Origin: Alphaproteobacteria bacterium
Lineage (GTDB): Bacteria; Pseudomonadota; Alphaproteobacteria; SP197
Direction of reading: 5' to 3'
Length of the DNA: 64,000 bases
Assembly: GCA_964291415.2 (NCBI GenBank)
Contig: OZ219917.1
Span: 1,178,012 to 1,242,011 of the forward strand
Part shown: piece by piece, positions 1-22,395 of the stretch
How positions within the stretch are numbered: the first letter of the stretch is position 1
Layout: every line of letters starts with the position of its first letter
The notes under the pieces: generated by a model
What the model was told of the DNA's origin: nothing
Database searches by the model: none
The model's input: only the letters and a program-made list of their open reading frames with translations
Made by a program: the position numbers and the translations under genes

Positions 1-222
1 TCGCACGGCACCGGTCCGCGCCTGCATGACCTGCGCCACCGGTTCGCCGTGAACACGCTGCTTGGGTGGTATCGCAACGAAGTCGATGTCGAACGTCACA
101 TCCCGCAACTCGCGACCTGGCTCGGCCATGCCCATGTGAGCGATACCTACTGGTATCTCACCGCCACGCCGGAGTTGCTGCATCTGGCCGCCCGACGTCT
201 CGACCGCAGGGCGCCGTCATGA
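1..222 (+). CDS. RIT element recombinase B (C-terminal part, truncated by window edge)
   Basis: Frame 1 reads GPRLHDLRHRFAVNTLLGWYR...LATWLGH...TYWYLTATPELL*, the C-terminus typical of the middle RIT recombinase; ATGA overlap with the next gene. Confidence 0.85.
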   Translation, partial: SHGTGPRLHDLRHRFAVNTLLGWYRNEVDVERHIPQLATWLGHAHVSDTYWYLTATPELLHLAARRLDRRAPS

Positions 223-1217
223 GCGATGCGGCAGACTTCCCGCGGCTGCTCGCGCTGTTCTTCACCGAGCGTCTCATGCGACAGCGCCAGGCCAGCCCGC
301 ACACCATCGCCAGCTACCGTTCGACGTTCCGCCTCCTGGTGCTCTACGCCCAGCGCGTGTTGAACACACCGCCCTCGGCGATGGCGCTCGCCGACTTCGA
401 CACCGAGCTGCTCGGCGACTTCCTCGGCCATCTCGAGACCGAACGCGGCAACGATGCGCGGACCCGCAACACCCGCCTTGCCGCCATCCGTTCGTTCTTC
501 CGCTTCGTCGCCTTGCAGGAACCCCGCCACGCCGCCCTGGCCCAGAGGGTCCTGGCCATCCCGGACAAGCGCTACACCCGCCGCCCCGTGACCTGGCTCG
601 AGCGCCCCGAAGTCGAGGCGCTCCTCGCGGCGCCGGACCCGCGATCCCGCAGCGGACGCCGCGACCGCGCCTTGCTGCTCGTGGCAGTCCAGACCGGACT
701 GCGCGCCTCGGAGCTCACCGGACTGCGATGCGAGGATGTTCAGCTCGGCGCCGGCGCCCACGTGCGGTGTCACGGCAAGGGACGAAAGGAGCGGTGCACG
801 CCGCTGCGCAAGGATGCGGCGAAGGCACTCCGGGCGTGGCTGGCCGAACGCCGCGGCGAGCCGCGCGACCCCGTGTTCCCCAATCAGCGCGGCGGCCCGC
901 TGAGCCATGACAGCCTCGCCTACCTCCTGGGCAAGCACGTGACGACCGCGCGGGCTCGATGTCCCTCGCTCGCCAGGAAACGTGTCAGCGCCCATTCATT
1001 GCGCCATTCGTGCGCCATGGAACTCCTTCACAGCGGTGTCGACCGCGCGGTCATTGCATTGTGGCTCGGTCATGAATCCGTCGAGACCACGTACGTCTAT
1101 CTGCACGCCGACCTGAAACTGAAGGAAAAGGCCATGGCGCACACTCAACCTTCACATGTGCCGCACACGCGTTACCGGCCCGACGATGACGTGTTGGCAT
1201 TCCTGAACAGCCTGTGA
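219..1217 (+). CDS. RIT element recombinase C (XerD-like tyrosine recombinase)
   Basis: SPHTIASYR N-terminal SAM-like domain; TGLRASEL, GKGRKER, HSLRHS, WLGH and TYVYLHADL motifs. Confidence 0.9.
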   Translation: MSDAADFPRLLALFFTERLMRQRQASPHTIASYRSTFRLLVLYAQRVLNTPPSAMALADFDTELLGDFLGHLETERGNDARTRNTRLAAIRSFFRFVALQEPRHAALAQRVLAIPDKRYTRRPVTWLERPEVEALLAAPDPRSRSGRRDRALLLVAVQTGLRASELTGLRCEDVQLGAGAHVRCHGKGRKERCTPLRKDAAKALRAWLAERRGEPRDPVFPNQRGGPLSHDSLAYLLGKHVTTARARCPSLARKRVSAHSLRHSCAMELLHSGVDRAVIALWLGHESVETTYVYLHADLKLKEKAMAHTQPSHVPHTRYRPDDDVLAFLNSL

Positions 1218-1300
1218 TTATCCCGGAATCAAGGTCCCTTCGAGCACGCTCCCCGCCCGTCTCCGCCGTCGATTCCGGAGTAAGACGGATCCGGCAATAA
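1218..1300. repeat. RIT terminal recombinase-binding repeats
   Basis: TTATCCCGGAATC (1218-1230) is inverted relative to GATTCCGGAGTAA (1271-1283) and GATCCGGCAATAA (1288-1300). Confidence 0.7.
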
Positions 1301-2280
1301 TGTCGCAGATCGTGGAGACGAACATCCTCGATCCCGGCCTCGTTGCGGGCCCTGTACCAGAGCCCGATCTCGCATGAGCGTGGCCGCGCAGGATCGCGCG
1401 GCGAGGGAAAGACCCAGACGCTGCTCGCCCTTGGCTGACGCTCGACAATCTCCTGGGCGGCGGCCGATAGCCAGACTTCGCGGGGCCCGGTCTTTGCATC
1501 GATCAGCCTGAGTGAGGCGCCGTGGACCTCGCGCCACCGCAGTCTGGTGATCTCGCCGCGTCGGCATCCGGTCAGCAGGAGCAGGCGGATCATGTCGGCC
1601 TGAGGTTGGTACGTGGGACGCGTCGCGACCATTCTGTCCAGTGTCTGGTAGAGGCAGGCGATTTCCTGCCTCGACAGGAACCGCGTCAGCGGCGGGCGCC
1701 TGTTTCGCTTCACGCTTCGCGTCGGGTCGCTGCTGATGTGGCCGCTCGCAACGGCGAACTTCATGATGCGGCGCAACGTTTGCAGCACCATGTTGGCGCC
1801 GCCCGGTGCAACCTTGCTGTAGGCATCGAACCACTTCTCAACATGTCGCGGTCCGATGTGATCGAGCCGCAGGGAACCGAATGACGGCAGCAACTGCCTC
1901 TTCAGTTCCCGGGCAAGGTATGCACGCCGTTGAGGTGTGCAGTGGTCGAGGACCGCTTCCTTCCATGGCCCTGTGGCGAAGGCGGAAAAGAGCGGGACAA
2001 CCCTGTCGGGCTTGCGATCGCCGGATCGTTCCTGGAGCATGAGGGTCAGGCAGTCTCGACGCGCCTCATCGATGGACTTTAGTGCCGCGGATCCGATGGT
2101 TGTTCGCGCCGGGCGTCCGTTCCTGAATTCCTGCCAGACATAGCTGCGATGGCCCGAGGACCGGACCCGCACACCAAAGCCGGCGAGAGAGGTGTCCCAG
2201 ACGGTGTACTCGACCTCACGGGGACGGAGTCTTTCGACAACAGCCTCCGTCAACCTGACCTTTCTCGCCCTGGTTCTCAT
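1300..2280 (-). pseudogene. Tyrosine integrase B of element 1, interrupted by the RIT element
   Basis: MRTRARKVRLT...WDTSLAGFGVRV arm-binding domain, TGCRRGEI, DAKTG, DVRLHDLRH, then homology to 9242-10393 stops abruptly; LLGH and catalytic Tyr are missing. Confidence 0.85.
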
Positions 2281-3398
2281 GCCAGACCCTCCGACAGAAC
2301 CGGCGCGAAGAGATTGATGGCCTGTCGAATCGTTTCGTCGGTGAGATGCGTGTAGCGCAGGGTCGAGGACGCCCTGGCGTGGCCAAGGAGTTTGCCGATC
2401 GCAAGAATGGTCTCGCCATTCTGGAGCGCGACGCTGGCATAGGAGTGGCGCAGATCGTGCAGGCGGACGCCGTTCAATCCGGCTTCCGCACGGATTTGCC
2501 GCCAGAATTCGTCGAGATGATGCCGTTTCGGCTTTGTTGCCGAAAAGACCCATGTGGACTTCCGCGGCAGGTTGTCGAGGACATCGCGCGCGGCTTGCGC
2601 CAGCCAGACCGTGCGCGGGCCGGTCTTGCTGTCCGGCAGGAACAATCGGCCTTCACGGTAATCCCTCCACCTGAGCATGATGATCTCACCCTTGCGGCAG
2701 CCGGTCAGGAGAAGCATCTGCACGGCGGCGGTATGCAACGGACGTCTTGATTGGTGGCGTGCCAGAACGGCGGCAAGACTGCGGTACTCCTCCGGCCGGA
2801 GAAACCGTTCGCGTAAGGTCTCGCGGTAGCGGCGGATACCGACGCAGGGGTTGCTGTTCTCCGGCCTGTAGTCCCAGATTTCGGCCTTCTGCATGATGAC
2901 GGACAGGATCGGTAGGGAGCGGTTGGCCGCCGCTGGCGTTGCATGCAGCGACCGGAACCAGGTTGCGACGTCCTGCTGGGTGATGTCGCTGATGATGCGG
3001 TCGGCGAAGAAGGGCAGGATCTGCCTCTTGAGATAGATCCGGTTGGCCGTGAGGGTGCCGGGCTTCCAGCGCCGCTTGTAGTGGTCAAGGACTTCCTCGG
3101 CGACAGTCTCGAAGAGTGCGTCCTTATCTGTCCAGGGATCCGCAGAGTCGCCGTTCCGGTACGCAGCCAGCATCGCGCGTGCCCGTTCACGAGCCTGCGC
3201 CATGGTCACGGCTCCGGCATCGTCGAGGGTCTTCCAGATTCTCCGGCCCTCGTGCTGAGACTGAATGAAGTAGCGTCTGGCGCCCGAGGGCATGATGCGC
3301 AGGCCAAATCCCTTCAGTTCGGTGTCCCTCACGTCCAGGATGACTTTCTTTGGCTTGAGCGTATCGACGCGGTGCTGGGTGAGGTGTAGCGTGGCCAT
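2277..3398 (-). CDS. Tyrosine integrase A of element 1 (arm-binding N-terminal domain)
   Basis: MATLHLTQHRVDTLKP, RDTELKGFGLRI, TGCRKGEI, DSKTG, HDLRH, LLGH, TLRY; homolog of 8114-9238. Confidence 0.9.
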   Translation of the reverse strand: MATLHLTQHRVDTLKPKKVILDVRDTELKGFGLRIMPSGARRYFIQSQHEGRRIWKTLDDAGAVTMAQARERARAMLAAYRNGDSADPWTDKDALFETVAEEVLDHYKRRWKPGTLTANRIYLKRQILPFFADRIISDITQQDVATWFRSLHATPAAANRSLPILSVIMQKAEIWDYRPENSNPCVGIRRYRETLRERFLRPEEYRSLAAVLARHQSRRPLHTAAVQMLLLTGCRKGEIIMLRWRDYREGRLFLPDSKTGPRTVWLAQAARDVLDNLPRKSTWVFSATKPKRHHLDEFWRQIRAEAGLNGVRLHDLRHSYASVALQNGETILAIGKLLGHARASSTLRYTHLTDETIRQAINLFAPVLSEGLA

Positions 3399-3504
3399 GG
3401 TTGTTTCCTCCGGTGTTCTGTGGCACTGGGGGAAGAATGGGGCCGCCTTTTCGCCCAAGTGTTGCACAAAACGAAAGAAAATACGTGTGTATTTTCCGTG
3501 GGTT

Positions 3505-3530
3505 AGCACTCAAAAGTGCGCCTCTTGTGT
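3505..3530. other. Predicted att end of dual-integrase element 1
   Basis: AGCACT-CAAA-AGTGCG-CCTCTT-GTGT has the same architecture, and a similar distance to the integrase start, as the left end of element 2. Confidence 0.6.
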
Positions 3531-3587
3531 AGCACGGAATGGCGGATATCGTGCGCCCTGAAGTTCGACACGATCGCGGTGGCAGGC

Positions 3588-4886
3588 ATGGCACAGCTTG
3601 CGCAGTCGTCTATCCGCCAGAGAGCCGCGAGGGCTCTTCCCGGTGGTACGTTCGGCAACGTCTCCGGAGATCTCGTCATTGCCCGGGGCAGCGGCAGCCG
3701 CGTGTGGGACGATGAAGGCCGCGAGTACATCGACTATCTCATCGGCTCGGGCCCCATGCTCATCGGGCATGCCCATCCCGAGGTCACGAGCGCGGTGCGC
3801 AGCCAGCTCGAAACGGGGACGACGTTCTTTGCCAGCAATCCCGAGGGCATCGCCCTCGCCGAAGCCATCATCGACGCCGTGCCGGCCGCCGAAAAGGTTC
3901 GTTTCACGAGTACGGGCTCGGAAGCCGACGCCTTTGCCATGCGCCTTGCCCGTGCCCATACGGGACGCCCGAAAATTCTCAAGTTCGAGGGCGGCTACCA
4001 CGGCTACAGCGACTACGCACTGATGAGCCTCGCGCCGAAAACGTCCGGAAACTCTCCCCGCCCGATTCCCGATTCCGCGGGCATTCCCGACACGGTGAGG
4101 GACACGATCCTTGTGGCGCCGTTCAACGATGCAGGTGCGGTGGAAAGTCTCTTGAGGGAGTACGGATCCGAGATCGCGGCGGTGTTCCTCGAGCCGATGC
4201 AGCGCCTCATCCCGCCGCAACCGGATTTCCTTGCCGCCTTGCGGAACCTGACGCGAGAACACGATGTGCTCCTCGTGTTCGACGAGGTGGTCACGGGATT
4301 CCGGCTGGGCATGGGCGGCGCCCAGGAATACTACGGAGTCGTTCCGGACCTCTGTACGCTCGGCAAGGTGATCGGGGGCGGCTTCCCGCTTGCAGCCATT
4401 GCAGGACGCGAGGACATCATGGCCGCCTTTGACAGCGAGCAGGCCGGCGCCGGGCGGTTCGTGCCGCAGGTCGGCACGCTCTCCGGCAATCCCGTGGCGG
4501 CCATGGCCGGCCTTGCAACGCTCGGCGTCCTGTCGCGTCCCGGCGTCTTTGAGCGACTCTTCGACACGGGCCGCCGCCTGATGGCGGCCCTCGAGAGGAT
4601 CCTGGCTGACAACGGGATCGATGCCCGGGTGGTCGGCGAACCTCCTCTGTTCGATGTCGTCTTCACCCATGGCGCCGTCAGCAATCACCGCGACATGCTG
4701 GCTGCCAACGCCGCGATGCTGAAGCGATTCAACGCTCTCCTCATGGAGAATGGCGTTCTCAAGGCGGATTCCAAGATCTACGTTTCCACGGCCATCGACG
4801 ACGAGGACATCACCCGTACGATTGCCGCAATGGAAGACGCCATCGGCCGCCTTGCCCGGGAATGTCACGCCGGTTACGTGTCATGA
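3588..4886 (+). CDS. Class III PLP aminotransferase (glutamate-1-semialdehyde aminomutase-like)
   Basis: YIDYLIGSGPMLIGH, STGSEA, FEGGYHG, FDEVVTGFR, TLGKVIGGGFP, GTLSGNP. Confidence 0.9.
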   Translation: MAQLAQSSIRQRAARALPGGTFGNVSGDLVIARGSGSRVWDDEGREYIDYLIGSGPMLIGHAHPEVTSAVRSQLETGTTFFASNPEGIALAEAIIDAVPAAEKVRFTSTGSEADAFAMRLARAHTGRPKILKFEGGYHGYSDYALMSLAPKTSGNSPRPIPDSAGIPDTVRDTILVAPFNDAGAVESLLREYGSEIAAVFLEPMQRLIPPQPDFLAALRNLTREHDVLLVFDEVVTGFRLGMGGAQEYYGVVPDLCTLGKVIGGGFPLAAIAGREDIMAAFDSEQAGAGRFVPQVGTLSGNPVAAMAGLATLGVLSRPGVFERLFDTGRRLMAALERILADNGIDARVVGEPPLFDVVFTHGAVSNHRDMLAANAAMLKRFNALLMENGVLKADSKIYVSTAIDDEDITRTIAAMEDAIGRLARECHAGYVS

Positions 4887-6013
4887 CGGATGTCAGTGTC
4901 GATGCCTCCGGGACATTCCTGATCCTGGGGTCCAGGCGCTTTCACGCCATCTGGCTGCGCGACAATGCGGCCGATCCCGAGACCCGTGACCCCGGCAATG
5001 GTCAGAGGCTGATTGCACTGGGCGCCATCCCGTCCAATCTCCGCATTGCCTCCGCGGCCGTCAGCAACACCACACTCATGGTCAACTTCGCCCCGGAGAT
5101 GAGGACGATCGCCTTCGACTTGTCCTGGCTCGAGCGGAATGCCTACGACCGGACGGGAGTTGACGGGCGTGGCTGGACGGATCCGGCAATCACCATGTGG
5201 ACCGGCGCCCGGCTGGGCGAGGCGCCGGTCGCGGACCTTGGGGATCTTGAGATGCGCGGCGCTGCGCTGCGCGACTGGCTTGGCCACGTCCGGCGCTATG
5301 GTGTGGCGCGGGTGATCAACGGGCCGGCGGCGCCCGGAGCGCTCTTTCGCATCGTCGATCTCTTCGGTCACGTGAGGGAGACCAACTATGGCCGTCACTT
5401 CGACGTTCGCACCCAGGTGAACCCGGTGAATCTTGCCTATACCGGACTCGCCCTTCAGGCCCATACCGACAACCCCTACCGGGACCCGGTGCCGACGATT
5501 CAACTGCTTTACTGTCTCGAGAGTTCGCTTGCCGGCGGCGACAGCATGGTCATCGACGGATTTGCCGCCGTTCGCCGCCTGCAGGACGAGAATCCGGATC
5601 ACTTCGATGTGCTTGCCGATCACTGTGCACGCTTCGCCTTTGACGGCGAGGATGGCGTCTCGCTCGCCGCCCGCCGTCCGCTGATCGAACTGGCGCCGGA
5701 CGGAGAACTCAGGTGCGTGCGTTTCAACAACCGGTCCCTGGCGGCCGTGAGGGATGTGCCCTTCGAGCGCATGGCCACGTGGTATGCGGCCTACCGGCAC
5801 CTTGGCGACATCGTCGACGACCCGATGATGGCGATTTCGTTCCGCCTGGAACCCGGCGAGTGCTTTGTTGTCGACAACACCCGCGTTCTTCACGGCCGTA
5901 CGGCGTGGACAGGCGCCGGCAACCGCTGGCTCCAGGGCTGCTATGCGGACATGGACGGGCTGCGCTCGACACACGAGGCGATGATGCAGGCAACATCGCG
6001 GACGCCGGTCTGA
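4883..6013 (+). CDS. tmpA: 2-(trimethylamino)ethylphosphonate dioxygenase (gamma-butyrobetaine dioxygenase-like)
   Basis: FHAIWLRDN, AHTDNPYRDPVP, DNTRVLHGR, RWLQGCYAD; translationally coupled to an HD protein. Confidence 0.75.
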   Translation: MTDVSVDASGTFLILGSRRFHAIWLRDNAADPETRDPGNGQRLIALGAIPSNLRIASAAVSNTTLMVNFAPEMRTIAFDLSWLERNAYDRTGVDGRGWTDPAITMWTGARLGEAPVADLGDLEMRGAALRDWLGHVRRYGVARVINGPAAPGALFRIVDLFGHVRETNYGRHFDVRTQVNPVNLAYTGLALQAHTDNPYRDPVPTIQLLYCLESSLAGGDSMVIDGFAAVRRLQDENPDHFDVLADHCARFAFDGEDGVSLAARRPLIELAPDGELRCVRFNNRSLAAVRDVPFERMATWYAAYRHLGDIVDDPMMAISFRLEPGECFVVDNTRVLHGRTAWTGAGNRWLQGCYADMDGLRSTHEAMMQATSRTPV

Positions 6014-6603
6014 TGGCCCAGGCGATCATCGATTGCCTGGCTGCCATCTTCGAAGACGTGGCGGCCGTCGAGTACCTTGGCGAGGACGTGACGATCGCCG
6101 AACACATGCTGCAGAGCGCCACCGTTGCCCAGAGAAGCGGCAGGAAGGAGGCGGTCATCGTCGGAGCGCTGCTTCACGACATCGGCCATGTGGCAGGCGA
6201 TTCCGGGATGTTCTCCATGACCGACATCCGGGACCGTCACCACGAGGTGGCCGGCGCCCGACTGGTGGAGCGTTTCTTTCCCGCCGTCGTGACCGACTGC
6301 ATACGCCACCATGTGGCGGCCAAGCGCTACCTCTCGGCTACCAGGCGTGGTTACCTGGAGAGGTTGAGCGACGCGTCGCGCCATTCGCTTTCCCTCCAGG
6401 GCGGCCCGATGGAGGCACACGAGGCCGGGCAGTTTGCCCGACACCCGCACCTCGGCGACATCATCGCCGTACGCCTCCTGGATGACGCCGGGAAGCGGCC
6501 CGGCATGAAGACGCCCGGATTTTCGCATTTCGTCCCGATCATCGAGAGCCTGGTGGAGGAACACCGGCGAAGCCAGAACAAGGAGGCGCATGATGCTGCT
6601 TGA
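6013..6603 (+). CDS. tmpB: PhnZ-like HD-domain diiron oxygenase (C-P bond cleavage)
   Basis: EYLGEDVTIAEHMLQ, LLHDIGH, HHVAAKRYL, SLSLQGGPM, DDAGK; TGATG overlap with tmpA. Confidence 0.75.
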   Translation: MAQAIIDCLAAIFEDVAAVEYLGEDVTIAEHMLQSATVAQRSGRKEAVIVGALLHDIGHVAGDSGMFSMTDIRDRHHEVAGARLVERFFPAVVTDCIRHHVAAKRYLSATRRGYLERLSDASRHSLSLQGGPMEAHEAGQFARHPHLGDIIAVRLLDDAGKRPGMKTPGFSHFVPIIESLVEEHRRSQNKEAHDAA

Positions 6604-6925
6604 CGTGCGAACCTACACCTGCCGTCCCGGCATGCTCAAAAGACACATGGAACTCTATGAGGCGTTCGGCAAGGAACCGCAGACGAGACACCTTGGACAG
6701 CCCCTGGCATGGCTGGTCACCGAGACCGGCAATCCCAACCAGTTTGTCCATATCTGGGTCTACGAGAATGCCGGTGACCGCGAGGCGCGTCGGAAGGCGA
6801 TGCAGGCGGATCCCGACTGGCAGGACTACCTGGCCCGCAGCGCCGAACTCGGCGCCCTCGAGAGTCAGGAGAACCGGCTCATGACGCCGGCAGGTTTCTT
6901 TCCGCCACCCGTCTGCCGGTCGTGA
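6590..6925 (+). CDS. NIPSNAP family protein
   Basis: DVRTYTCRPG, GNPNQFVHIWVY, DREARRKAMQADPDW. Confidence 0.9.
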   Translation: MMLLDVRTYTCRPGMLKRHMELYEAFGKEPQTRHLGQPLAWLVTETGNPNQFVHIWVYENAGDREARRKAMQADPDWQDYLARSAELGALESQENRLMTPAGFFPPPVCRS

Positions 6926-7617
6926 CCATGCCGGTCATTGCCGGCAATCCGCTGCCTTTTCCACAGGGGGGCGGCCTTGAGCCATCACGCACGGCGCTTC
7001 TCGTCATCGACATGCAGCGGGATTTCTGTGCGGAGAATGGCTACATGCACCGTCTCGGAGCCGACCTGGCGCGCCTGAGACAACCTGTCGAGCCGATTCG
7101 CCGTATCCTCGGCGCGGCGCGCCGGTGCGGGCTCACGATCATTCACACGCGCGAGGGCTATGCTCCGGATCTCTCGGACCTGCAGCCCTGGAAGGTTGGC
7201 GGCGCCGCCAACGAGGCCATCGGCAGCACCGGACCTCTGGGCCGGGCGCTCGTCCGGGGCGAGGAGGGGTGGAACATCATCGACGAACTCGCTCCGTCGC
7301 CCGGCGAGGACGTGTTCGACAAGGCAAGCTACGGGGTCTTCGCAACGACCGCGATCGACGCCGACCTTCGGGCGCGGGACATCCGGGCGGCGATCCTGGT
7401 CGGGCTCACCACCGATTGCTGTGTCACGTCGACCCTGCGCGAGGCCCTGGATCGCGGCATCGAGTGCGTGGTCGTCGAAGACTGCACGGCCGCGGCAAGC
7501 CAGCGGCGACACGATGCGGCCATCGACCTCATCCGCTCGTCCGGTGGCGTCTTCGGAACTCTCGCGAGGAGCGACGCTGTCATCGAGGCGCTCGAAACGA
7601 CGCATCGCCGGCGCTGA
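6922..7617 (+). CDS. Cysteine hydrolase (isochorismatase family, biuret hydrolase-like)
   Basis: LLVIDMQRDF, IHTREGY, DKASYG, GLTTDCCV. Confidence 0.85.
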   Translation: MTMPVIAGNPLPFPQGGGLEPSRTALLVIDMQRDFCAENGYMHRLGADLARLRQPVEPIRRILGAARRCGLTIIHTREGYAPDLSDLQPWKVGGAANEAIGSTGPLGRALVRGEEGWNIIDELAPSPGEDVFDKASYGVFATTAIDADLRARDIRAAILVGLTTDCCVTSTLREALDRGIECVVVEDCTAAASQRRHDAAIDLIRSSGGVFGTLARSDAVIEALETTHRRR

Positions 7618-7666
7618 CATTGTCGTCGGCGTCACTTCACGATAGCTTTCCGTCCTGGAGGCTTCC

Positions 7667-7983
7667 ATGGTGACGTTGACACCGCTCGATGCGGCCTTCG
7701 GAGCGGAGATTCACGGAGTCCGGCTTGCCGACGATTTCGCCGAGCCGGTCATGCGTACCCTGGTGGACGCGCTTCATGCCCATCGCGTGATCGTCATCAG
7801 GGACCAGGATCTCGACAAGGACCGGTTTCTCCGGTTCGGCAGGCTGTGGGGCGATCCCATCCCCCATGTCCTCGACCACATGCGCATGGATGGCTATCCC
7901 GAACTCATGACCGTGGGCAACACCGAAGAGCGGGACAGGGACGCCAAGATCCGCAACGGCGCCGCCCTGTGGCACACCGACCA
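7667..7983 (+). pseudogene. TauD/TfdA dioxygenase, 5-prime part (split by the integrated element)
   Basis: LTPLDAAFGAEIHGVRL...VIVIRDQDL...ALWHTD, ending at the direct repeat. Confidence 0.92.
7973..7983 (+). repeat. attL core CACACCGACCA
   Basis: Identical to 30595-30605. Confidence 0.92.
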
Positions 7984-8113
7984 CGCACCTTCGGTGCTGA
8001 ACTAAATTTCAACATACTGAAACAACGACGTTTTCTCTCTCACAACTTCACGCCTGGGACGCCGGAACAAGGCGTTTCCGTGCCCAAGGTGCAACAGGGA
8101 AGGGAGAGAAACC

Positions 8114-9238
8114 ATGGCGACGAGCCGCCTTACGCAACATCGCGTCGACACCCTCAAGCCGGGCGGGAAGACCCGTGACATCCGCGACAGGGACCTCAAG
8201 GGTTTCGGTGTTCGGATCCTGTCTTCGGGGCGCAAGCGTTTCTTCCTGCACCGTCAGGTGGACGGTAGGAGGGTCTGGCATGCCATCGGTGACGCCGACG
8301 ACATCACCCTGTCGTGCGCGCGTTCAAGGGCCAAGGCCTTGTTGGCAGCGAGATTGCTTGGCGAAGAAGCGGAGGCAATCGACCACATTGCCTTCGAGGT
8401 CGTAGCCGAGGAAGTCTTCCGCCGCTACGGGCGCCACTGGAAGCCACGCACACTCAGGGTCAATCTCGGATACTACAGAAACCAGATCTTGCCCTGGTTC
8501 AAGGGCATGGCCATTGCCGCCATCACGCGTCCTGATGTTCAGAAGTGGTTCGCCTCGCTTCACTCGACACCGGTGGCTGCCGATCGCTCGGCACCGGTGC
8601 TCTCGGTCATCCTCAGACAGGCCGAGGTCTACGGCTACCGCCCCGAGGGATCCAACCCCTGCAGCGGGATCAGGCGCTATCGCAGGCGGGGCCGTGAACG
8701 ATTCCTGACTTCCGACGAGATACGCCGGTTGAGCCGGGTTCTCGACCTGCATCATGAGCGCCATCTTCTTCAGGTATCCATCGTGCGACTTCTTCTCCTG
8801 ACGGGATGCCGCAAATCGGAAATTCTGACGCTCAGCTGGTCCGAATACCGCGAGGGCAAACTTCACCTCTCGGACTCCAAGACCGGACCGCGCACGGTGT
8901 GGCTGTCGTCCGCCGCACGTCGCATCCTCGATGGCCTGCCGCGGTCAGGGCCATGGGCGTTTCCTTCTCCCCTCAAGAACCGCCATCTGTCGGAGAGCGC
9001 GCTTGACGCATTCTGGTGGGGAGTCCGAGGCGAGGCGGCAATCGACGATGTCCATTGTCATGATCTTCGCCACAGTCATGCGTCGGTGGCCCTCGCTCAT
9101 GGCGAGACGATCCTCACCATCGGCAGGCTTCTCGGCCACAACGATCCGGCGACCACGCTGAAGTACACGCACCTTGCCGATGCAACCATCCACGAGGCTG
9201 CCGAAGCTCTCGCACCCATCCTTGCCGGGGAGGACTGA
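8114..9238 (+). CDS. Tyrosine integrase A of element 2
   Basis: RDRDLKGFGVRI arm domain; TGCRKSEI, DSKTG, HDLRH, LLGH, TLKY. Confidence 0.92.
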   Translation: MATSRLTQHRVDTLKPGGKTRDIRDRDLKGFGVRILSSGRKRFFLHRQVDGRRVWHAIGDADDITLSCARSRAKALLAARLLGEEAEAIDHIAFEVVAEEVFRRYGRHWKPRTLRVNLGYYRNQILPWFKGMAIAAITRPDVQKWFASLHSTPVAADRSAPVLSVILRQAEVYGYRPEGSNPCSGIRRYRRRGRERFLTSDEIRRLSRVLDLHHERHLLQVSIVRLLLLTGCRKSEILTLSWSEYREGKLHLSDSKTGPRTVWLSSAARRILDGLPRSGPWAFPSPLKNRHLSESALDAFWWGVRGEAAIDDVHCHDLRHSHASVALAHGETILTIGRLLGHNDPATTLKYTHLADATIHEAAEALAPILAGED

Positions 9239-9241
9239 ACC

Positions 9242-10393
9242 ATGCCTCGTAGGATGCGCCTCAGTGATCGCAACGTTGCACGGTTGCGTCAGGAGGCAGC
9301 CGAGTACACGGTCTGGGACACAAGGATGGCTGGTCTCGGTGTGCGTATCCGGCCGTCCGGGCAGCGGGCGTTCATCTATCTCGATAGTGGCGGTGGATCC
9401 TCGAAACGCCGCACCCTCGGTCAGACGATGCTGATGACGGTCGAAAACGCGCGCGCCGAGTGCTTTGCCATCCAGTCCGACGGAATTGAAGCCCGGGAAA
9501 CGGTCGCAAAGGTTCCCTTGTTTCGGGAGTTCGTTGCCGGCGTCTGGCGATCAGAATGCTACGAACGTCGAAAGCCCTCTTCCCGCCGCACTGCCGACAC
9601 CATACTTGCAAGCCAGTTGTTGCCGACATTCGGTGACGTGCCACTCGACCGGATCGACCGGCGATCCGTTCACCTCTGGTTTGACCGCTACAGCGTCACT
9701 GCGCCTGGTGGGGCCAACCGCGCGCTCGACGCCTTGCGTCAGATCATGAACCACGCCAAGGCCCACGGCCATATTGAAACCAATCCTGCAAGCCGCATCC
9801 GCCGTAATCCGGTGCGCAGGCTCAACCGGTTCCTTTCCCGCATCGAAATTCGTCGCCTGCACGCTGAACTGGACCGTTGCGCTGCAGAAAATCCGTCACG
9901 TGCAGCGCAGGCAGACATCGTCCGTCTGCTCGCCTGCACCGGTTGTCGACATGGCGAGATCCGAACCTTGAAATGGCAGGAAGTCGGTGTCGGTACGCTC
10001 GATCTCAGCGACAGCAAGACAGGTCCGAGAACGGTGTATCTCAGCCGCAAGGCACGAGAGATAATCGAGCGCCAGCCACGCACCGGCAGTCCGTATGTCT
10101 TTCCCTCGACGAACGATCCGGCACAGCCCGTTTCGCAGAATCACGCATTCTGGCAACTCGTTCGAACACGTGCCGGGATCGAGGATGTGCGTCTTCACGA
10201 CCTTCGTCACACATTCGCCAGCTATGCCGTCATGCAGGGTATTCCGCTGCCGACGGTGGCGCGTCTGCTTGGTCATCGGAAGGTTTCGATGACTCTGCGA
10301 TACGCACACGTTGCTGACCGGGACGTCGAAGCGGCGGCGGAGCGGGTCGGGAAAGCCATGACAGAGATCATGGAATCGGGTGGGGGATCCTGA
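9242..10393 (+). CDS. Tyrosine integrase B of element 2
   Basis: WDTRMAGLGVRI arm domain; TGCRHGEI, DSKTG, HDLRHTFAS, LLGH, TLRY. Confidence 0.92.
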   Translation: MPRRMRLSDRNVARLRQEAAEYTVWDTRMAGLGVRIRPSGQRAFIYLDSGGGSSKRRTLGQTMLMTVENARAECFAIQSDGIEARETVAKVPLFREFVAGVWRSECYERRKPSSRRTADTILASQLLPTFGDVPLDRIDRRSVHLWFDRYSVTAPGGANRALDALRQIMNHAKAHGHIETNPASRIRRNPVRRLNRFLSRIEIRRLHAELDRCAAENPSRAAQADIVRLLACTGCRHGEIRTLKWQEVGVGTLDLSDSKTGPRTVYLSRKAREIIERQPRTGSPYVFPSTNDPAQPVSQNHAFWQLVRTRAGIEDVRLHDLRHTFASYAVMQGIPLPTVARLLGHRKVSMTLRYAHVADRDVEAAAERVGKAMTEIMESGGGS

Positions 10394-10823
10394 GTCGATT
10401 TAATCCAATTTCGTTCGTATGCGATGCGGAATGGTTGAGAAGTGGTTCAACGCGTGGTGATGCCATGCGCTCAACCATGGACTTGGCGTTCGGAGAAATA
10501 GCACACTTCAGCGGCTAACGCTCTCGTTCAAGACCGTCAACTGCGACACCGGTGCATGATTCTTCTTCGGTATCAACTGAGCGTGGATCGCGAGTCGCGT
10601 CATGAATGTCCTTCGGACCGCTGTTCAAGTATTGCTTCTATCAATGCGCGTACGTACCGGGGTGGAGGGCTTTGCACGATTGTACCAACGGCCGGTTGCA
10701 CGACGGCACAGAAGCCGGATGCTACGATGTCAAATGCGAAAGCAGGGTCGAGTTCGAGTGAGTCGAACTCACTCTCGGAATGGAAGCCTGTTTCTAGTAC
10801 TTCCAGCGGTGCGCCCGAGCGTT

Positions 10824-11789
10824 CTATTCTTCGCTCTTTACCACATAGCCATGGTTTCTTTGCGTGGCCTCAAACGCGCTCTTCCCGAACATCGAAACAT
10901 CGCCCTGCATCGCGCGCAGAGTTTCGCTCTGAGCAGCACGATCGAGGTTTTCCATGTAAGACTCCCTAATCCTTTGCAGTTGTCGTTCCGAAATCTGCGA
11001 GTAGCCGTCTGCCGCCAGTCGGGCGCGTCCGAACATGAAGTCGCGCACATCCGACGGCAACTCGATGTCGTGTTGTCCTAACTGTCCGTGCCGAACGTGA
11101 AGCTTCGTTCCCTTCCAGCGGCGTGGGTAACTCATCCCAATGAATCCAAACAGGACAAATCTCCCCATCTTCGCATATGACATCGCCGACTCTCGATCGT
11201 GAGCAACATCAACATCGACTGCGCGAGCGAGATATCGGCTGATGTTGCGTGGTAAATTGGCAATCGAGGTGCCTGCAACTATATCAGTTACAAACATATG
11301 TTGTTCGGGAGGTCCAGGATTGGTCTCATGTCCCAGAAGGAACTGCGACCACTGTCTGAGGGCACCGTTGACGTTCGCCTTGATATGGTCGGGAAATTCG
11401 TCGAGGTAGCCACTGGATGTATACAATCTCAATACCCTCCATGATACGGAGGTCGCGAACTTCAGCATCCATGGACCATAACTGATGCGGCGAACGCTTC
11501 CGCTGTTGAGAGGAGCGAAACAGCTCTCGGCGAACTCTTTCTCCCAGGAAGAGAACAGCTGCTCGCAATCCCTGCACAACATTCGAGGTTTAAGACCATC
11601 CTGGACTCGCCGATTGGGGGATTCGGATGACCGAATATGGCCTGTTGCGGAAGTTCTCCGCAACCATTCGAAGACGAATCTTGGAATGATATGGCTCGCT
11701 TGCAAGTCGGACGATCCGGCGCACAAGGCGCATCGTTCAAAGTCGAGTCCATTGTTACCGATTGAAGAATATAATTTGTGCAACGTCAT
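10824..11789 (-). CDS. Zn-binding HNH-like endonuclease domain protein
   Basis: CALC...SHIIP...LCRDCEQ pattern; AT-richer than flanking host genes. Confidence 0.6.
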   Translation of the reverse strand: MTLHKLYSSIGNNGLDFERCALCAGSSDLQASHIIPRFVFEWLRRTSATGHIRSSESPNRRVQDGLKPRMLCRDCEQLFSSWEKEFAESCFAPLNSGSVRRISYGPWMLKFATSVSWRVLRLYTSSGYLDEFPDHIKANVNGALRQWSQFLLGHETNPGPPEQHMFVTDIVAGTSIANLPRNISRYLARAVDVDVAHDRESAMSYAKMGRFVLFGFIGMSYPRRWKGTKLHVRHGQLGQHDIELPSDVRDFMFGRARLAADGYSQISERQLQRIRESYMENLDRAAQSETLRAMQGDVSMFGKSAFEATQRNHGYVVKSEE

Positions 11790-11956
11790 CTCGCTCGATT
11801 TGGTGATCCGGCTTTTGGCACTTCAGTCGATGAGACTGGATTTTGTCGTGCTATCCTCGAGATCCCGATGCTACCGCTAACGGGTTTGAAGTACCCCGCT
11901 GCACACATAGTGGCAAAACACTCACAGTATTCGACAGCCTCGCCCTTCGTTGTACT

Positions 11957-12364
11957 TCAAGATACAGGTTTGATTTTCATATCCCGAACGTTCAACGGTA
12001 CGAAACACTCCAGAGCCCCGCGCTGTGGTTCTCCCAGTGTCGCGGAGACGGATTCGCAATGGACTGCCTGGGGAAACGTGAACTGTTTAGGCGTGTTCGG
12101 CTCTTGATCCATCTGTGATTCGATACTCCGACGAACATGCTCTGGCAACGCCGCGAGAATCAGCGCCAGTGGCGCCGGGCCAAAATCCAGGGAGAGAGCA
12201 TGACGTTCACCTGCATACATCGCGTCGACCATTAGCGAATACTGACCCGGGCGGCCGAGTGCATCGAATCCCCATATTGGGAATCCGTAGAAGTAGTGTT
12301 CCATGTGCGGGCTGTCGTAGCCGTCCTTTTTCAATCGCGTTCCGTAATCTGGTCGTAGCGTCAT
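11957..12364 (-). CDS. Hypothetical protein
   Basis: 135-aa ORF with upstream AAGGA and protein-like composition; no family recognised. Confidence 0.6.
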   Translation of the reverse strand: MTLRPDYGTRLKKDGYDSPHMEHYFYGFPIWGFDALGRPGQYSLMVDAMYAGERHALSLDFGPAPLALILAALPEHVRRSIESQMDQEPNTPKQFTFPQAVHCESVSATLGEPQRGALECFVPLNVRDMKIKPVS

Positions 12365-12840
12365 GGTTCGTGTTCCTTACCCGCGTTTGAGCGTGCATTG
12401 TATTGCGCCCCATGGGGAATTATTCGGGTTTCCACTGAGTTGTGGCCTGATTGAGGATTTACTCCATGCTTACGGAGTGTACGCCGAAGGACCGCAAGTT
12501 TGAAGCTTTGGACGGCGCTGGTTCACCGGTCGTTGCGCCAATGGCCGGATGACTTCGGACAGCGGTGTCTTGTTGGTGTGCGAGGCCGGTTGCCTGCTCG
12601 ACATCCCCGCCCCGGTTGCGCCATGTTTTGTCGGTCACCGCATTCTTTGTCTGCCAGGCATGTCCTGGAGACTCTTGATGCTACTCGGATGGTAGTGATA
12701 CGAGGATCTCGACGATCATGGTCGGCTGCCCGAAGACAGCGACCTTGCGTAGACTTGCGGACGTCCGCAGGTGAACGGTGCGATGCCTCCGCAGGAATGC
12801 CGACGGAGTCACGGACTGTCCGCCTCGAGGACACTGAACC

Positions 12841-12933
12841 GACTGGAGCCGGGTGCCAGGTGACCGGGTGCGAGCGGTGTTCCGCTTCGAGGGCGGCACG
12901 ACAGTGGACGTAGACCTGGTCGACTGTTGCTGA
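12841..12933 (+). pseudogene. HigB/RelE toxin remnant
   Basis: DWSRVPGDRVRAVFRFEGGTTVDVDLVDCC* resembles the HigB C-terminus; lies directly upstream of higA. Confidence 0.7.
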
Positions 12934-12952
12934 CTGGAAAGGACCCCTGACC

Positions 12953-13267
12953 ATGAGCGAGATTGCAGGCGATCGAATCGGCCCCACCCGGAACCCACCG
13001 CACCTTGGCGAACTCATCCGCGAGAGCATGGACGATGTGGGTCGGAACGCAACCGAAACGGCGGCACGGCGTGGCTGCGAGCGCGGAATGCTGTCGCGCC
13101 TGATGAACGGCAAAGCGGGTGTGTCGGCGAACATGGCGCTGGCGCTGGTGGATATCGGCTGGGGAACTGCCGAGTACTGGATGCGGATGCAGGCGAGCTT
13201 CGAGCTTGCGCAGGTGCGCCAAGGTCGGACTGCCGAAGCGCGACACGCAGGCGCGCTACAGGCATGA
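12953..13267 (+). CDS. higA: HigA antitoxin (Xre HTH)
   Basis: NPPHLGELIRE...LSRLMNGKAGVSANMALAL...AEYWMRMQASFELAQ. Confidence 0.85.
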   Translation: MSEIAGDRIGPTRNPPHLGELIRESMDDVGRNATETAARRGCERGMLSRLMNGKAGVSANMALALVDIGWGTAEYWMRMQASFELAQVRQGRTAEARHAGALQA

Positions 13268-13382
13268 TCGAGACTCGCGCCGGGGCGGACGACCGGGGCA
13301 CTGTCCGGGCGGCTGTCCTTCATCAGGTTTCGGCCAACGGCACGCCGTCCGGGGCGCGGCGCAGAGCGGGCGGTATAGCCTG

Positions 13383-16187
13383 ATGCGCCTGTCGTGGAAC
13401 GAGGTTCGCGCTCGCGCCGCCGCCTTTGCCGAGGACTGGAAGGACGCGGCTTACGAGAAGGGGGAGACGCAGAGTTTCTACAACGCCTTTTTCGACGTGT
13501 TCGGGGTGCGGCGTCGGAGTGTCGGGCGCTACGAGGAGCATGTTAAGAAGCTCGACAACAGTTCGGGTTTCATCGACCTGTTCTGGCCGGGCGTGCTGCT
13601 CGTCGAACAGAAAAGCGCCGGGCGCGATCTCCGCAAGGCTTACGAACAGGCCGGGGACTACTTCGACGCGCTGCCGGAACACGAGCGCCCTCGTTACATC
13701 CTGGTGAGCGACTTCCAGACCTTCGAGCTTCACGATCTTGACGAACGGGAAGCCGTCGCCTTCGCGCTCGCGGATCTGCCCGCCCATGTCGAATCGTTCG
13801 GCTTCATCCTCGGCGTGCAGCGCCGGACGTTCCGCGACCAGGACCCGGCGAACATTGAGGCCGCGGAACTGGTCGGACGGCTGCACGATGCGCTCGCCGA
13901 TGCCGGACACCGGGGTCACGATCTGGAACGCTTCCTGGTGCGAGTCGTGTTCTGCATGTTCGCCGACGACACCGGGATCTTCGAACCGCGCGATATCTTT
14001 CTCGACTTCATCGAGACACGCACCAGCGAAGACGGGGCCGATCTCGGACCGTGGCTCGCGCAACTGTTCGAAGTGCTCGACACTCCGGAGGACGAGCGAG
14101 CGGCGACTCTTGACGAGGACCTTGCGCGCTTCCCCTACGTCAACGGTGATCTCTTGAAGGGGCACCTGCGGACGTTCTCGTTCAACGCGGCAATGCGCGG
14201 GGCATTGCTCGACGCCTGCCGCTTCGACTGGTCGAACATCTCGCCCGCGATCTTCGGCGCGCTGTTCCAGTCGGTCATGGACCCGGCGGAACGCCGAGCC
14301 CAGGGGGCGCATTACACGACCGAGAAGAACATACTCAAGGTGATCGAGCCGCTGTTCATGGACGACCTGCGTGCTGAGTTTGAGCAGGTACGCAAGCGCC
14401 GCCGTGGCCGGCTTGCTGCACTCCACCAGTTCCAGGCAAAGCTTGGCAATCTGACGTTCTTCGACCCGGCCTGCGGCTGCGGCAATTTCCTCATCATCGC
14501 GTACCGGGAATTGCGGTTGCTGGAAATCGAGGTCATCCGGGAGATACGGGACGCGACCGCCGCGACCGATCAGGCGGTACTCGATGCGGCATGGCAGTCA
14601 GTAGTGGACGTGGATCAGTTCTACGGGATCGAGCTTGGCGAGTTCCCGACCCGCATCGCGGAGACCGTGCTGTGGATGATGGACCACATCATGAACAACC
14701 GGCTGAGCCTTGAGTTCGGTCAGACCTTCGTTCGTATCCCGCTAGAGAAGTCGCCGCATATCGTCTACGGCGACGCGCTGGAAACAGATTGGTCGGGTCT
14801 GCTGCCGTCGGACGACTGCTCCTTCGTGCTCGGCAATCCGCCGTTCGTGGGTTCGAAGTACCAGACGGCAGAGCAGCGTGCGCAGGTGCGTGGAATCGCG
14901 GCGCTCGGCAAGGGCGGTGGCACGCTCGATTACGTCGCCGCGTGGTTCATCAAGGCGGGAGAGTATCTGAAGGGCAGCTGCGCTCGGGTTGGCTTCGTCG
15001 CGACCAACTCGATCACGCAGGGCGAGCAAGTCGCGCAGCTATGGCCGGTCCTGTTCGGACGCTGCAAGCTGGAGATCGCCTTCGCGCACCGGACTTTCGC
15101 GTGGGGATCGGACGCGCGCGGCAAGGCGCATGTGCATGTCGTCATTCTCGGCCTCGACCGGCGGAACGCTGCACGAGCAGAGAAGCGGCTTTTCAGCTAT
15201 CCCGATATCAACGGTGATCCGGAAGAGAGCAGCCATTCGGCGCTGTCGCCGTACCTGTTCGACGCGGGCGGGTTGTCGGACCCGCATTTGGTGGTCCGGG
15301 AGGAAAGTGCACCGATCAACGGTATGCCGCAGCTTCTGACTGGCTCACAGCCCATCGATGGCGGCAAGTACATATTCGATGCAGCGGAACGTGGCGCGTT
15401 TCTGGAGGTGGAGCCGGAAGCCGCGCCCTGGATTCGACCGTTCATCGGCGCGCGGGAATACTTGCAGGGTGGAGAGCGGTGGATTCTGGCGCTGCACGAC
15501 GCTCCGCCGGCAGTTCTGGCGCGACTGCCGCGCGTGCGGGAGCGGATCGCCGCCGTTCGGGCCTTTCGGCAACGAAGCCAACGCAAGTCCACACTCAAGC
15601 TGGCCGAAACCCCGACGCTCTGGCAGATCAACGTCGTTCCCACGGCTCCGTTTCTAGTGATTCCGGAGGTCAGTTCGGAGCGACGGGAGTATGCTCCCAT
15701 CGGCTGGTTGGAGCCGCCTACGATACCCAGCAACCTCGTTCGCATCTTGAGCAACGCAACTTTGTCGAACTTCGCGCTGCTGACCTCGGCCATGCATATG
15801 GCGTGGCTGCGCCACATCGGCGGGCGCCTGAAGAGCGATTACCGCTATTCCATCGGTCTCGTCTACAACACGTTCCCGCCGCCGCCCAAGGGAAGGGACT
15901 TGTCGAAGTTAGAGCCACTCGCCCAAGCTGTCCTGGATGCACGCGCTGCCCATTCGGGCGCAACGCTCGCCGACCTCTACGATCCGGACCTGATGGCGCC
16001 GAACCTTCGCCGGGCACATCAGAAGCTCGATCGTGCGGTGGATCGGCTCTACCGGCGCTCGGGGTTCGCATCCGAGCGGGAACGTGTTGAATACCTGTTC
16101 ATGCTCTACGAGAGACTGCTCGCTCCGTTGACCGACGCGACAAAATCGAAGGGGCGCAGGCGTAAAGTCCAGGGTCGTGCGACATGA
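13383..16187 (+). CDS. MmeI-like type IIL restriction-modification enzyme
   Basis: LSWNEVRARAAAF, FIDLFWPGVLLVEQKS (PD-ExK), GAHYT, FDPACGCGNFL, GNPPF, GGRLKSDYRYS, TLADLYDP. Confidence 0.92.
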   Translation: MRLSWNEVRARAAAFAEDWKDAAYEKGETQSFYNAFFDVFGVRRRSVGRYEEHVKKLDNSSGFIDLFWPGVLLVEQKSAGRDLRKAYEQAGDYFDALPEHERPRYILVSDFQTFELHDLDEREAVAFALADLPAHVESFGFILGVQRRTFRDQDPANIEAAELVGRLHDALADAGHRGHDLERFLVRVVFCMFADDTGIFEPRDIFLDFIETRTSEDGADLGPWLAQLFEVLDTPEDERAATLDEDLARFPYVNGDLLKGHLRTFSFNAAMRGALLDACRFDWSNISPAIFGALFQSVMDPAERRAQGAHYTTEKNILKVIEPLFMDDLRAEFEQVRKRRRGRLAALHQFQAKLGNLTFFDPACGCGNFLIIAYRELRLLEIEVIREIRDATAATDQAVLDAAWQSVVDVDQFYGIELGEFPTRIAETVLWMMDHIMNNRLSLEFGQTFVRIPLEKSPHIVYGDALETDWSGLLPSDDCSFVLGNPPFVGSKYQTAEQRAQVRGIAALGKGGGTLDYVAAWFIKAGEYLKGSCARVGFVATNSITQGEQVAQLWPVLFGRCKLEIAFAHRTFAWGSDARGKAHVHVVILGLDRRNAARAEKRLFSYPDINGDPEESSHSALSPYLFDAGGLSDPHLVVREESAPINGMPQLLTGSQPIDGGKYIFDAAERGAFLEVEPEAAPWIRPFIGAREYLQGGERWILALHDAPPAVLARLPRVRERIAAVRAFRQRSQRKSTLKLAETPTLWQINVVPTAPFLVIPEVSSERREYAPIGWLEPPTIPSNLVRILSNATLSNFALLTSAMHMAWLRHIGGRLKSDYRYSIGLVYNTFPPPPKGRDLSKLEPLAQAVLDARAAHSGATLADLYDPDLMAPNLRRAHQKLDRAVDRLYRRSGFASERERVEYLFMLYERLLAPLTDATKSKGRRRKVQGRAT

Positions 16188-16275
16188 TCCATTCTCTTGG
16201 AGGTGAGAGCGCTGACGGTCAGCAGACCAGGATCTGCCTGGACGCATTGAGAACTATGCCAATGCGGGAACGAAA

Positions 16276-16458
16276 ATGACAGACCTTTCCGAAATCATTG
16301 GAGGCCTGATCGCCACCGGAAAGGAGGGCGACCACTGGGACTTCAAACGTGATTCGCATACCAAGACAGGCGACTTGATCAAGGACATCATGTGCCTTGC
16401 CAACACGCCCCGACATGCTGGAGACCGCTATATCGTCTATGGTGTCGACGACTGTTAG
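16276..16458 (+). pseudogene. AlbA_2/Schlafen-like domain fragment truncated by an IS end
   Basis: EGDHWDFKR...KDIMCLAN...YIVYGVDD; the stop codon lies inside the IS inverted repeat. Confidence 0.75.
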
Positions 16459-17067: not shown

Positions 17068-17339
17068 ACTACAGTAGAGGAGCCCGCAACGAATGAAGAA
17101 CGCTACTTGTCGCTTCGCACCCTCACTCTTCGGAGACTTTACCGGGAAGTCTGGCGTTCTCCCATCCGTGTAGCTTGTCACGAAGTTCGGATATGCCTAA
17201 GTTGGCAACTCCGAAGTCAGGGACGCCGCACGGCGCATGGAGGCGAGAATCGTGACGACCAGGAAGGGCGTTCCAGTCACGTTCCGGTCATAAACTGGAG
17301 CAAACCAGCACCACTAGTGGGAATGCGGGCTAGTTCAGT

Positions 17340-18308: not shown

Positions 18309-18310
18309 CT

Positions 18311-18988: not shown

Positions 18989-19081
18989 GGAATTCTCCTT
19001 CAGCCTCAGTTGCGAATGCTATGCATAAGCGCTGCAGCACCACCAATGCTCACAACTTGTTCGTGCTTCGCATAGTTTCTG

Positions 19082-22368: not shown

Positions 22369-22395
22369 GCCGGTCTTCGCAAGACTGGCAGCGTT

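Follow-up and report, generated by a model that had tools for sequence, protein, structure and literature searches.

The 64,000-nucleotide stretch analysed here (the window) forms the end of contig C1 of an alphaproteobacterial genome assembly of 4.44 Mb in five contigs (the genome is referred to as G000, its contigs as C1, C2 and so on). It carries two related genomic islands, E1 and E2, each of which possesses a pair of adjacent but distinct tyrosine integrase genes, intA and intB. The four genes lie where an earlier note, made from the sequence alone, had placed them, IntA1 and IntB1 on the minus strand and IntA2 and IntB2 on the plus strand. Together with the island termini and the host sequence around them, they are laid out as follows.

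1303..2280, minus strand: 5' part of IntB1, ~326 codons, cut directly after RLHDLRH
2277..3398, minus strand: IntA1, intact, 373 amino acids
3399..3520, minus strand: left end of E1 (attL, left attachment-site side), with terminal sequence CGCACTTTTGAGTGCTAAC on the minus strand, from 3520; homology to contig C3 begins at 3521
3521..3533: one copy of the E1 direct repeat, 13 bp, GCTACACAAGAGG on the minus strand; the other copy lies beyond the window, at C1:1147044-1147056
3521..7983, plus strand: host segment between the islands, with Pfam matches to an aminotransferase, TauD, HD, NIPSNAP, isochorismatase and the N-terminal part of a second TauD (7667-7983)
7973..7983: E2 direct repeat, copy 1, CACACCGACCA, inside the TauD codons for WHTD
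7984..8113, plus strand: left end of E2, a palindrome-bearing terminus CGCACCTTCGGTGCTGAAC (7984-8002) and a 110-bp conserved leader ahead of IntA2
8114..9238, plus strand: IntA2, intact, 374 amino acids; R233 K256 H316 R319 H342 Y351
9242..10393, plus strand: IntB2, intact, 383 amino acids; R236 K259 H319 R322 H345 Y354
30400..30594, plus strand: right end of E2, with conserved blocks TTGACG-17-TAGTTA and GTGTGA...TCACAC, ending in ...TGGTCTGT
30595..30605: E2 direct repeat, copy 2, CACACCGACCA
30606..31161, plus strand: C-terminal part of the TauD split by E2, with 96% identity to the last 185 residues encoded by the intact C3 copy and covering TauD profile positions 100-266

Contig C3 of the same assembly holds a 91-95% identical host locus that lacks both islands. 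C3:169400-165352 matches C1:1143000-1147056, C3:165365-160903 matches window positions 3521-7983 with 95.6% identity, and C3:160913-155486 matches positions 30595-36000; the sole interruptions of the colinearity of C1 with C3 are E1 and E2. Because the homologous locus on C3 is uninterrupted, the islands can be delimited to the base, E1 running from window position 3520 leftwards to C1:1147057 (~34.5 kb, including an inserted element described below) and E2 from 7984 to 30594 (22,611 bp). E2 splits a TauD gene that is whole in C3 (...WHTDQSYEE...) and is divided in the window into 7667-7983 and 30606-31161. Each island is flanked by direct repeats that begin with ACAC, and the two lie in opposite orientation, pointing away from each other, with 4.46 kb of ordinary host DNA between them. 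E1 and E2 are complete integrative elements, with the integrase pairs as their integration modules, and they inserted independently into one host locus. A composite transposon bounded by E1 and E2 is ruled out, since by comparison with C3 the 4.46-kb middle is host DNA, and a tRNA-targeting island was likewise rejected, no tRNA gene having been found in the 64-kb window. Among public contigs, one from run X2 bridges the 7983/7984 junction at ~94% identity, and contigs of runs X3 and X4 continue from 7983 into intact TauD sequence and could be counterparts of the C3 copy. The C3 locus itself may belong to a paralogous replicon, or its source may be a relative assembled together with this genome, the reported contamination of the assembly being 8.99%; in either case it represents an empty site.

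IntA1 and IntA2 share the start MAT..LTQHRVDTLKP and are 55% identical (204/373), IntB1 and IntB2 are 47% identical over 322 residues, and IntA2 and IntB2 are 37% identical to each other. The ATG of IntB1 overlaps the stop codon of IntA1 (ATGA), and IntB2 starts 3 nt past the IntA2 stop. All four genes match the Pfam models for Phage_integrase, the SAM-like/central domain and Arm-DNA-bind_3, with PF00589 scores of 67-83 bits for the intact genes. Both IntA and IntB possess the R-K-H-R-H/W-Y catalytic domain that defines the tyrosine recombinase superfamily, and the full R, K, H, R, H, Y set that had been read in the intact pair, IntA2 and IntB2, is indeed present in both. An arm-binding domain had been ascribed to both proteins as well. 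For IntA this stands, with an Arm-DNA-bind_3 (DUF4102) score of 37 bits against a cut-off of 27, whereas IntB reaches 22-25 bits and falls under the cut-off of 27, although its N-terminus aligns residue for residue with that of IntA. The N-terminus of IntA also matches a CP4-like integrase N-domain structure (3jtz, E 1.1e-4), and the nearest solved catalytic domains are those of XerA, XerC-like proteins, HP1 integrase and XerD (E 1e-12 to 1e-16). IntB1 is not decayed; it is interrupted after HDLRH by an inserted three-recombinase element of the recombinase-in-trio (RIT) type, and its match ends after RLHDLRH because the element is inserted there.

The pair is conserved well beyond the window. 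A search for IntA-like proteins at E <= 1e-40 in 61 genomes, in which A- and B-type matches were counted together, returned matches in 26 of the 61, including 14 of the 22 genomes of the window's genus, and the counts in some genomes rise to at least 32. IntB directly follows IntA in all 16 of the full-length IntA genes fetched from one of these genomes (G014), and the pair is found at 17 of 19 loci of the genus, the remaining two being cut by the end of the locus; ten more distant loci (30-46% identity) hold a single integrase. The distance from IntA stop to IntB start, determined for 36 pairs, is +3 nt in 15 and -4 nt in 11, with the others spaced between -7 and +5 by alignment and one pair partial. 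On plasmids, IntA is matched best by genes of the Shewanella oneidensis MR-1 megaplasmid and of a Vibrio europaeus plasmid, each of them the first gene of an annotated integrase pair with a 4-nt overlap. All six catalytic residues (R, K, H, R, H, Y) are kept without exception in 29/29 A and 29/29 B proteins of intact pairs.

In a quick maximum-likelihood tree of 71 proteins, an A clade and a B clade are each monophyletic (Shimodaira-Hasegawa-like approximate likelihood-ratio test, SH-aLRT, 95 each), and members from Shewanella and Vibrio occur in both. Single integrases form a third clade, on the A side, together with the second integrase of a tandem on contig C4 and a tandem from genome G038. 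A-A distances follow B-B distances closely (Mantel r 0.96), with none of 2000 permutations giving a value as high. A matches A and B matches B, and the pairing is therefore older than the split of the elements, as the earlier note had claimed; the separate A and B clades, with the Shewanella and Vibrio pairs inside them, extend that claim beyond the two islands. Of the checks that the note had proposed, phylogeny together with co-occurrence shows A and B to be co-occurring clades, paired at 16/16 and 17/19 loci.

What the copies have in common is a compact module of ~130 bp of conserved left end, intA and intB, the sole DNA shared by most of them, with cargo beginning where intB stops. Among the G014 copies, DNA similarity runs from ~135 bp ahead of the IntA start to approximately the IntB stop and usually no further, and no conserved third gene follows intB among the copies compared. 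In genome G005, the modules L113 and L114 have 97% identity over 2.5 kb, beyond which they give way to unrelated DNA, and an X2 contig departs from the window at 10372, with 21 nt still to go to the IntB2 stop. Module copies cease to resemble each other ~20-50 nt ahead of the IntB stop, and differing IntB tails give proteins of 376 to 423 amino acids; this 3' boundary of IntB could be a hot spot of cargo exchange or simply the start of unconstrained sequence. The module is old, being present in Alpha- and Gammaproteobacteria, and is highly multiplied in this genus; one genome has at least 16 copies of it.

The left end begins CGCACC-N3-GGTGCTGAAC in E2 and CGCACT-N4-AGTGCTAAC in E1, and the arms of this palindrome co-vary, with GCACT...AGTGC in E1, in a module remnant at C1:248182 and in element L095. 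Of 76 copies, drawn from 11 genomes with G000 among them, 68 have a left junction that reads ACACN-N6/7-GCACY-N3-6-RGTGC, a pattern expected by chance in ~1% of copies by a rough estimate from base frequencies, and the 12 bases outside it are unrelated among the 76. The fifth base of ACACN is mostly C; one subfamily has G, and A is found in E1 and a single further copy. An E2-type left end is kept in 5 further places of the same genome. Module remnants in G000, consisting of a left end with an N-terminal piece of IntA or of the end alone, lie at C1:248182, C1:522924, C2:1275399, C4:853662(-) and C2:877944(-); the first of these begins 9 nt after an apparent tRNA 3' end (GGTTCGAATCC...CCA), and that at C2:877944 is also beside tRNA-like sequence.

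Far ends were located for 11 elements (E1, E2, L032, L033, L036, L042, L039, L041, L047, L046 and L113), which measure from 10.0 to ~40 kb. A perfect repeat of at least 10 bp, consisting of ACACN and five further bases (N5), flanks 10 of the 11, and L046 has one mismatch. The base or two following the repeat is the element's at attL and the host's at attR (the right attachment site), which is what the edge of a crossover region should look like. Six aligned right ends share an outward-pointing block, TTGAC(A/G)-17-TAG(T/A)TA, ~95 bp from the end, as well as GGTGTGA, an inverted copy of the terminal TCACACC. A promoter scan found no promoter-like site at either end of E2, and the right-end pattern GGTYTGYYACAC has 6 matches in G014, none of which adjoins a module. 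Right ends were not located for L037 and L044 (within 29-49 kb) or for L114, and L045 has only a doubtful candidate.

The ACAC box is all that the targets have in common; insertions are found in the TauD gene, in an intergenic site and in dozens of unrelated places. The N5 bases are partly shared between close relatives. The two closest IntA pairs at different sites (98.5% and 93% DNA identity) have 4 of 5 N5 bases in common, and L032 and L033, with near-identical right ends, differ at one N5 base. Pairs at ~92% identity and below share 1.4-1.6 bases on average, with a background mean of ~1.4.

Beyond the integrases, two further genes of E2 bear on how the islands may move.

23343..27641, plus strand: TrwC-type relaxase/helicase, 1432 amino acids (TrwC 265 bits, AAA_30 152 bits)
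29916..30278, minus strand: small NikA-like (ribbon-helix-helix) gene, Pfam E 1.8e-4, below cut-off, near the right end and conserved in other elements

The TrwC region has tblastx matches of 50-60% in E1 and in the G014 element L042; for the NikA-like gene, element L036 gives matches of 55-68% in tblastx. Among the 115 E2 open reading frames (42 + 73) searched with Pfam, none matches an Xis/AlpA-type excisionase family, so that the statement that no excisionase is recognisable holds at the level of Pfam, and none matches a type IV secretion family. The only small DNA-binding matches in E2 are one HTH_31 and NikA-like ribbon-helix-helix matches. E2 looks like an integrative mobilizable element because it has TrwC and no match to a type IV secretion or Xis/AlpA-type family. 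Indeed, its genes and mapped ends supply an integrase, its own relaxase and attachment repeats with no mating-pair apparatus. From sequence, both E1 and E2 are probably mobilizable.

On sequence grounds, the simplest reading of the module is a mixed tetramer, because its half-sites are unlike, both of its co-translated enzymes have complete active sites and no excisionase is recognisable. The earlier note had suggested either a heteromeric recombinase or separate enzymes for integration and excision, and such a reading would fit the asymmetric core, the strict co-occurrence, the start/stop coupling and the two full catalytic sets. We hold with moderate confidence that IntA and IntB may form one heteromeric recombinase acting on an asymmetric core. 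In this model an IntA/IntB tetramer, probably A2B2, would carry out an otherwise canonical attP x attB reaction (attP and attB being the attachment sites of element and host). The left half-site would be the ACAC box, which is present at the right end of the element and in every target; next would come a crossover region of 6-7 bp, its first base usually C and the next five free; and the right half-site would be the palindrome GCACC-N3-GGTGC carried by the element, to which nothing in the target corresponds. On both partners the ACAC box would be recognised by one of the integrases; the other would recognise the palindrome of attP and sit non-specifically on the right half of the target, each cutting one strand pair, as XerC and XerD do. 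In the excised circle the joint would consist of the right end, ACACN, N5, then C or NC, and then the GCACC palindrome, the target having supplied ACACN-N5 only; for E2 the predicted joint is ...TGGTCTGT-CACACCGACCA-CGCACCTTCGG....

The element would land at sites that match its own ACACN and N5, because strand swapping needs matching crossover regions, and this would explain the perfect 10-bp repeats. Since unlike crossover regions leave one old and one new end, the perfect repeats in 10 of the 11 elements argue that elements land where N5 already matches. The N5 address would then drift through rare events that tolerate one mismatch, and the single mismatch of L046 looks like such a case. 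Assembly of the intasome would fall to the two arm-type N-terminal domains together with the conserved end blocks, perhaps making a dedicated excisionase superfluous, and the TrwC relaxase with the NikA-like protein would let a conjugative helper transfer the excised circle. A further step, which we put forward tentatively and think probably goes too far, is that the system may be retargetable, with A2B2 requiring only the 4-5-bp ACAC box and the rest of the target being read by base-pairing of the free 5-nt address of attP. If so, a one-base slip in the address would open new sites, and the spread to dozens of unrelated places per genome with neither a tRNA anchor nor an excisionase would be explained.

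Several points weigh against the mixed tetramer and the address. We infer both the contact between IntA and IntB and the need for both proteins from their genes, and linked genes co-diverge with or without interaction, so that the Mantel result speaks only for the absence of partner shuffling. The words ACACC and GCACC resemble each other, so that a single protein might read both half-sites, and many single P4-type integrases cope with asymmetric sites. The 10-bp repeat could instead come from a non-canonical, duplication-like insertion, the cleavage positions being putative. The address draws on two independent close pairs, and N5 looks random at ~92% IntA identity. Moreover, the E2 10-mer occurs at 16 other places in the genome, all empty; a 10-bp match is therefore clearly insufficient, or else the element is rarely active. 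Right ends are missing for 4 of the 15 copies searched, and a promoter-like reading of the outward TTGACx-17-TAGTTA block is unsupported by the scan.

Both integrases might instead divide the labour in time, one integrating and the other performing or directing excision in place of an excisionase, with no mixed tetramer. The lack of an Xis/AlpA-type match among the 115 E2 open reading frames would suit such an arrangement, as would the full catalytic sets and arm-type N-termini of both proteins, with which each could build its own intasome, and the unlike repeats of the two ends (GCACC/GGTGC on the left, GGTGTGA/TCACACC on the right). We nevertheless consider it unlikely, as tyrosine recombinases integrate and excise with the same chemistry at the same core, known systems switch direction through small accessory proteins and not through a second recombinase, and the start/stop coupling of intA and intB points to equal and simultaneous production.

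The abrupt end of homology among copies, within ~20-50 nt of the intB stop, raises another possibility, namely that one integrase serves attL and attR and the other has a second job such as cargo swapping at the 3' boundary of intB, multimer resolution or inversion between modules. Near-identical modules do carry unrelated cargo (97% identity over 2.5 kb in L113/L114, and the departure of an X2 contig at 10372), and E1 and E2 are inverted relative to one another. However, no second conserved site is seen, the conserved non-coding DNA being confined to the two ends, and the boundary at the end of intB may equally be the start of unconstrained sequence; we regard this explanation as quite improbable. 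That the genes are chance neighbours, from two stacked single-integrase elements or a recent tandem duplication with no joint function, is barely credible, for although the data do contain such cases (both the G038 pair and the second C4 integrase belong to the single-integrase clade), the pairing is found at 16/16 and 17/19 loci, no att-like DNA lies in the 3-nt gap or 4-nt overlap between the genes, and A and B are only 37% identical and belong to separate old clades.

Among known systems, the integrases of P4/CP4-type islands are like IntA and IntB in their domain order (arm, SAM-like/central, catalytic; the arm match of IntB is below the cut-off), and these islands likewise have the integrase gene at one end of the element and flanking direct repeats. 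P4/CP4-type elements have one integrase each, usually a tRNA or tmRNA target and a small Xis/AlpA partner. The IntA/IntB islands invariably have two different integrases, insert at targets other than tRNA genes, gave no match to an AlpA/Xis partner and occur in many copies per genome; in these traits they depart from the P4/CP4 type. The likeness to XerC/XerD at dif is one of concept only, in that both systems have two paralogous tyrosine recombinases with full active sites and unlike half-sites. XerC and XerD, in contrast, have no arm domains, are encoded by unlinked housekeeping genes and need FtsK, and IntA and IntB, at 49-68 bits against NCBIfam XerC/XerD cut-offs of 330-335, are not members of these families.

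Several tyrosine recombinase genes in an operon at one end of the element are also a feature of Tn554 (TnpA, TnpB, TnpC), the SEs (IntA, Tfp, IntB, Srap), the GInts (GinABCD) and the RITs, as these are described in two reports (PMC10214605; PMC3414803). In the SE, knockouts of intA and intB each abolish circle formation (PMC10214605). As described there, Tn554 needs TnpC, the SEs Tfp and Srap, and the GInts GinC and GinD, whereas our module has no conserved gene between or after intA and intB. In SE and Tn554, according to the same source, 6 bp of the old site travel along as a footprint at one end, so that the flanks are not repeats (PMC10214605), unlike the perfect repeats of 10 of the 11 IntA/IntB elements. 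Thus, where an SE has an intA-tfp-intB operon and srap, the genes of our module are 3 nt apart or overlap by 4 nt with no conserved gene after intB, and where Tn554 has tnpA-tnpB-tnpC and flanks that are not duplicated, our module has no third conserved gene and perfect repeats of at least 10 bp in 10/11. Nor does it have the three adjacent, overlapping tyrosine recombinase genes and inverted repeats within ~3.5 kb that characterise a RIT.

Published conjugative elements at tRNA-Leu are alike in having two adjacent tyrosine recombinases, thought to work in tandem, and direct repeats of 11-13 bp. They differ in being conjugative and in their tRNA-Leu target, and tandem action is stated there without experiments. 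A term search of Smyshlyaev et al. (PMC8138268) returned no mention of tandem, paired or hetero- recombinases. No description of the IntA/IntB module was found in the open-access literature on tandem, paired, adjacent or dual integrases, and the module appears to be undescribed in print. Its kind is that of an integrative mobilizable element driven by tyrosine recombinases, and its unusual core is the obligate A/B pair with a short ACAC-anchored target.

The common view of integrative islands is that they use one integrase and a small directionality factor, usually with a tRNA gene as anchor. The islands described here, with their relaxase and defence genes, are moved into short ACAC-containing sites by two full-length arm-type integrases whose pairing is obligate and ancient, which differs from that usual solution. 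If a mixed tetramer does read a half-site by protein and the crossover by homology, it would provide a compact model for the evolution of site choice in tyrosine recombinases as well as a marker and a boundary rule for annotating a large class of unannotated islands, and it might yield a recombinase that can be retargeted by editing five bases.

The element that interrupts IntB1 occupies the start of the window.

1..1302, plus strand: right-hand part of the RIT-type element, ~3.4 kb as a whole, with Phage_integrase and SAM_1 matches
near 19-207, within 1..1302: C-terminus of the preceding RIT recombinase
66-1217, within 1..1302: last recombinase gene of the RIT-type element

Positions 1-1302 are 100% identical to C4:472734-474035, part of a second RIT copy in the same genome, and three tandem recombinase matches are found at each of C1:1176627-1179225 and C4:471349-473947. 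The displaced C-terminus of IntB1 lies beyond the window, at C1:1175715-1175879. The two identical copies in G000 (window 1-1302; C4:470627-474035) are in opposite orientation, and each abuts the HDLRH codons of a different integrase gene. Four G014 IntB genes (L034/L035/L038/L040) likewise carry, at residue ~228 and in both orientations, a 100% identical 3.57-kb RIT, which has open reading frames of 413, 314 and 361 amino acids and long terminal inverted repeats (locus position ~4800-8400, element orientation). Both inserts qualify as RITs, the one in IntB1 by its three recombinase matches and the 3.57-kb one by its three open reading frames and terminal inverted repeats. Their repeated insertion inside integrase genes suggests that RITs target integrase coding sequence. 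The C4 copy lies in a second tandem of arm-type integrases (C4:469688-475463), whose first gene is broken by the RIT and whose second integrase falls in the single-integrase clade, outside the A and B clades; by its sequence, this tandem may be a different kind of pair.

The cargo of E2 follows IntB2.

10394..23342: variable cargo of E2, after IntB2, with a low-GC stretch without family matches at 10.4-12.5 kb
12953-13267: helix-turn-helix gene
13119-16187, plus strand: MmeI-type restriction-modification gene
17340-18308, minus strand: PP2C phosphatase
18311-18988, minus strand: VWA protein
19082-20767, minus strand: protein kinase

The stretch from 12953 to 20767 looks defensive, and the small helix-turn-helix gene overlaps the start of the MmeI-type gene. 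Non-coding cargo at 16588-16947 contains a 59-nt inverted repeat, its arms 83% complementary and 242 nt apart. At the far end of the window, positions 59476-64000 hold five to seven copies of a tandem repeat of ~306-315 nt, 61-91% alike, inside a very long minus-strand open frame that reaches the end of the contig.

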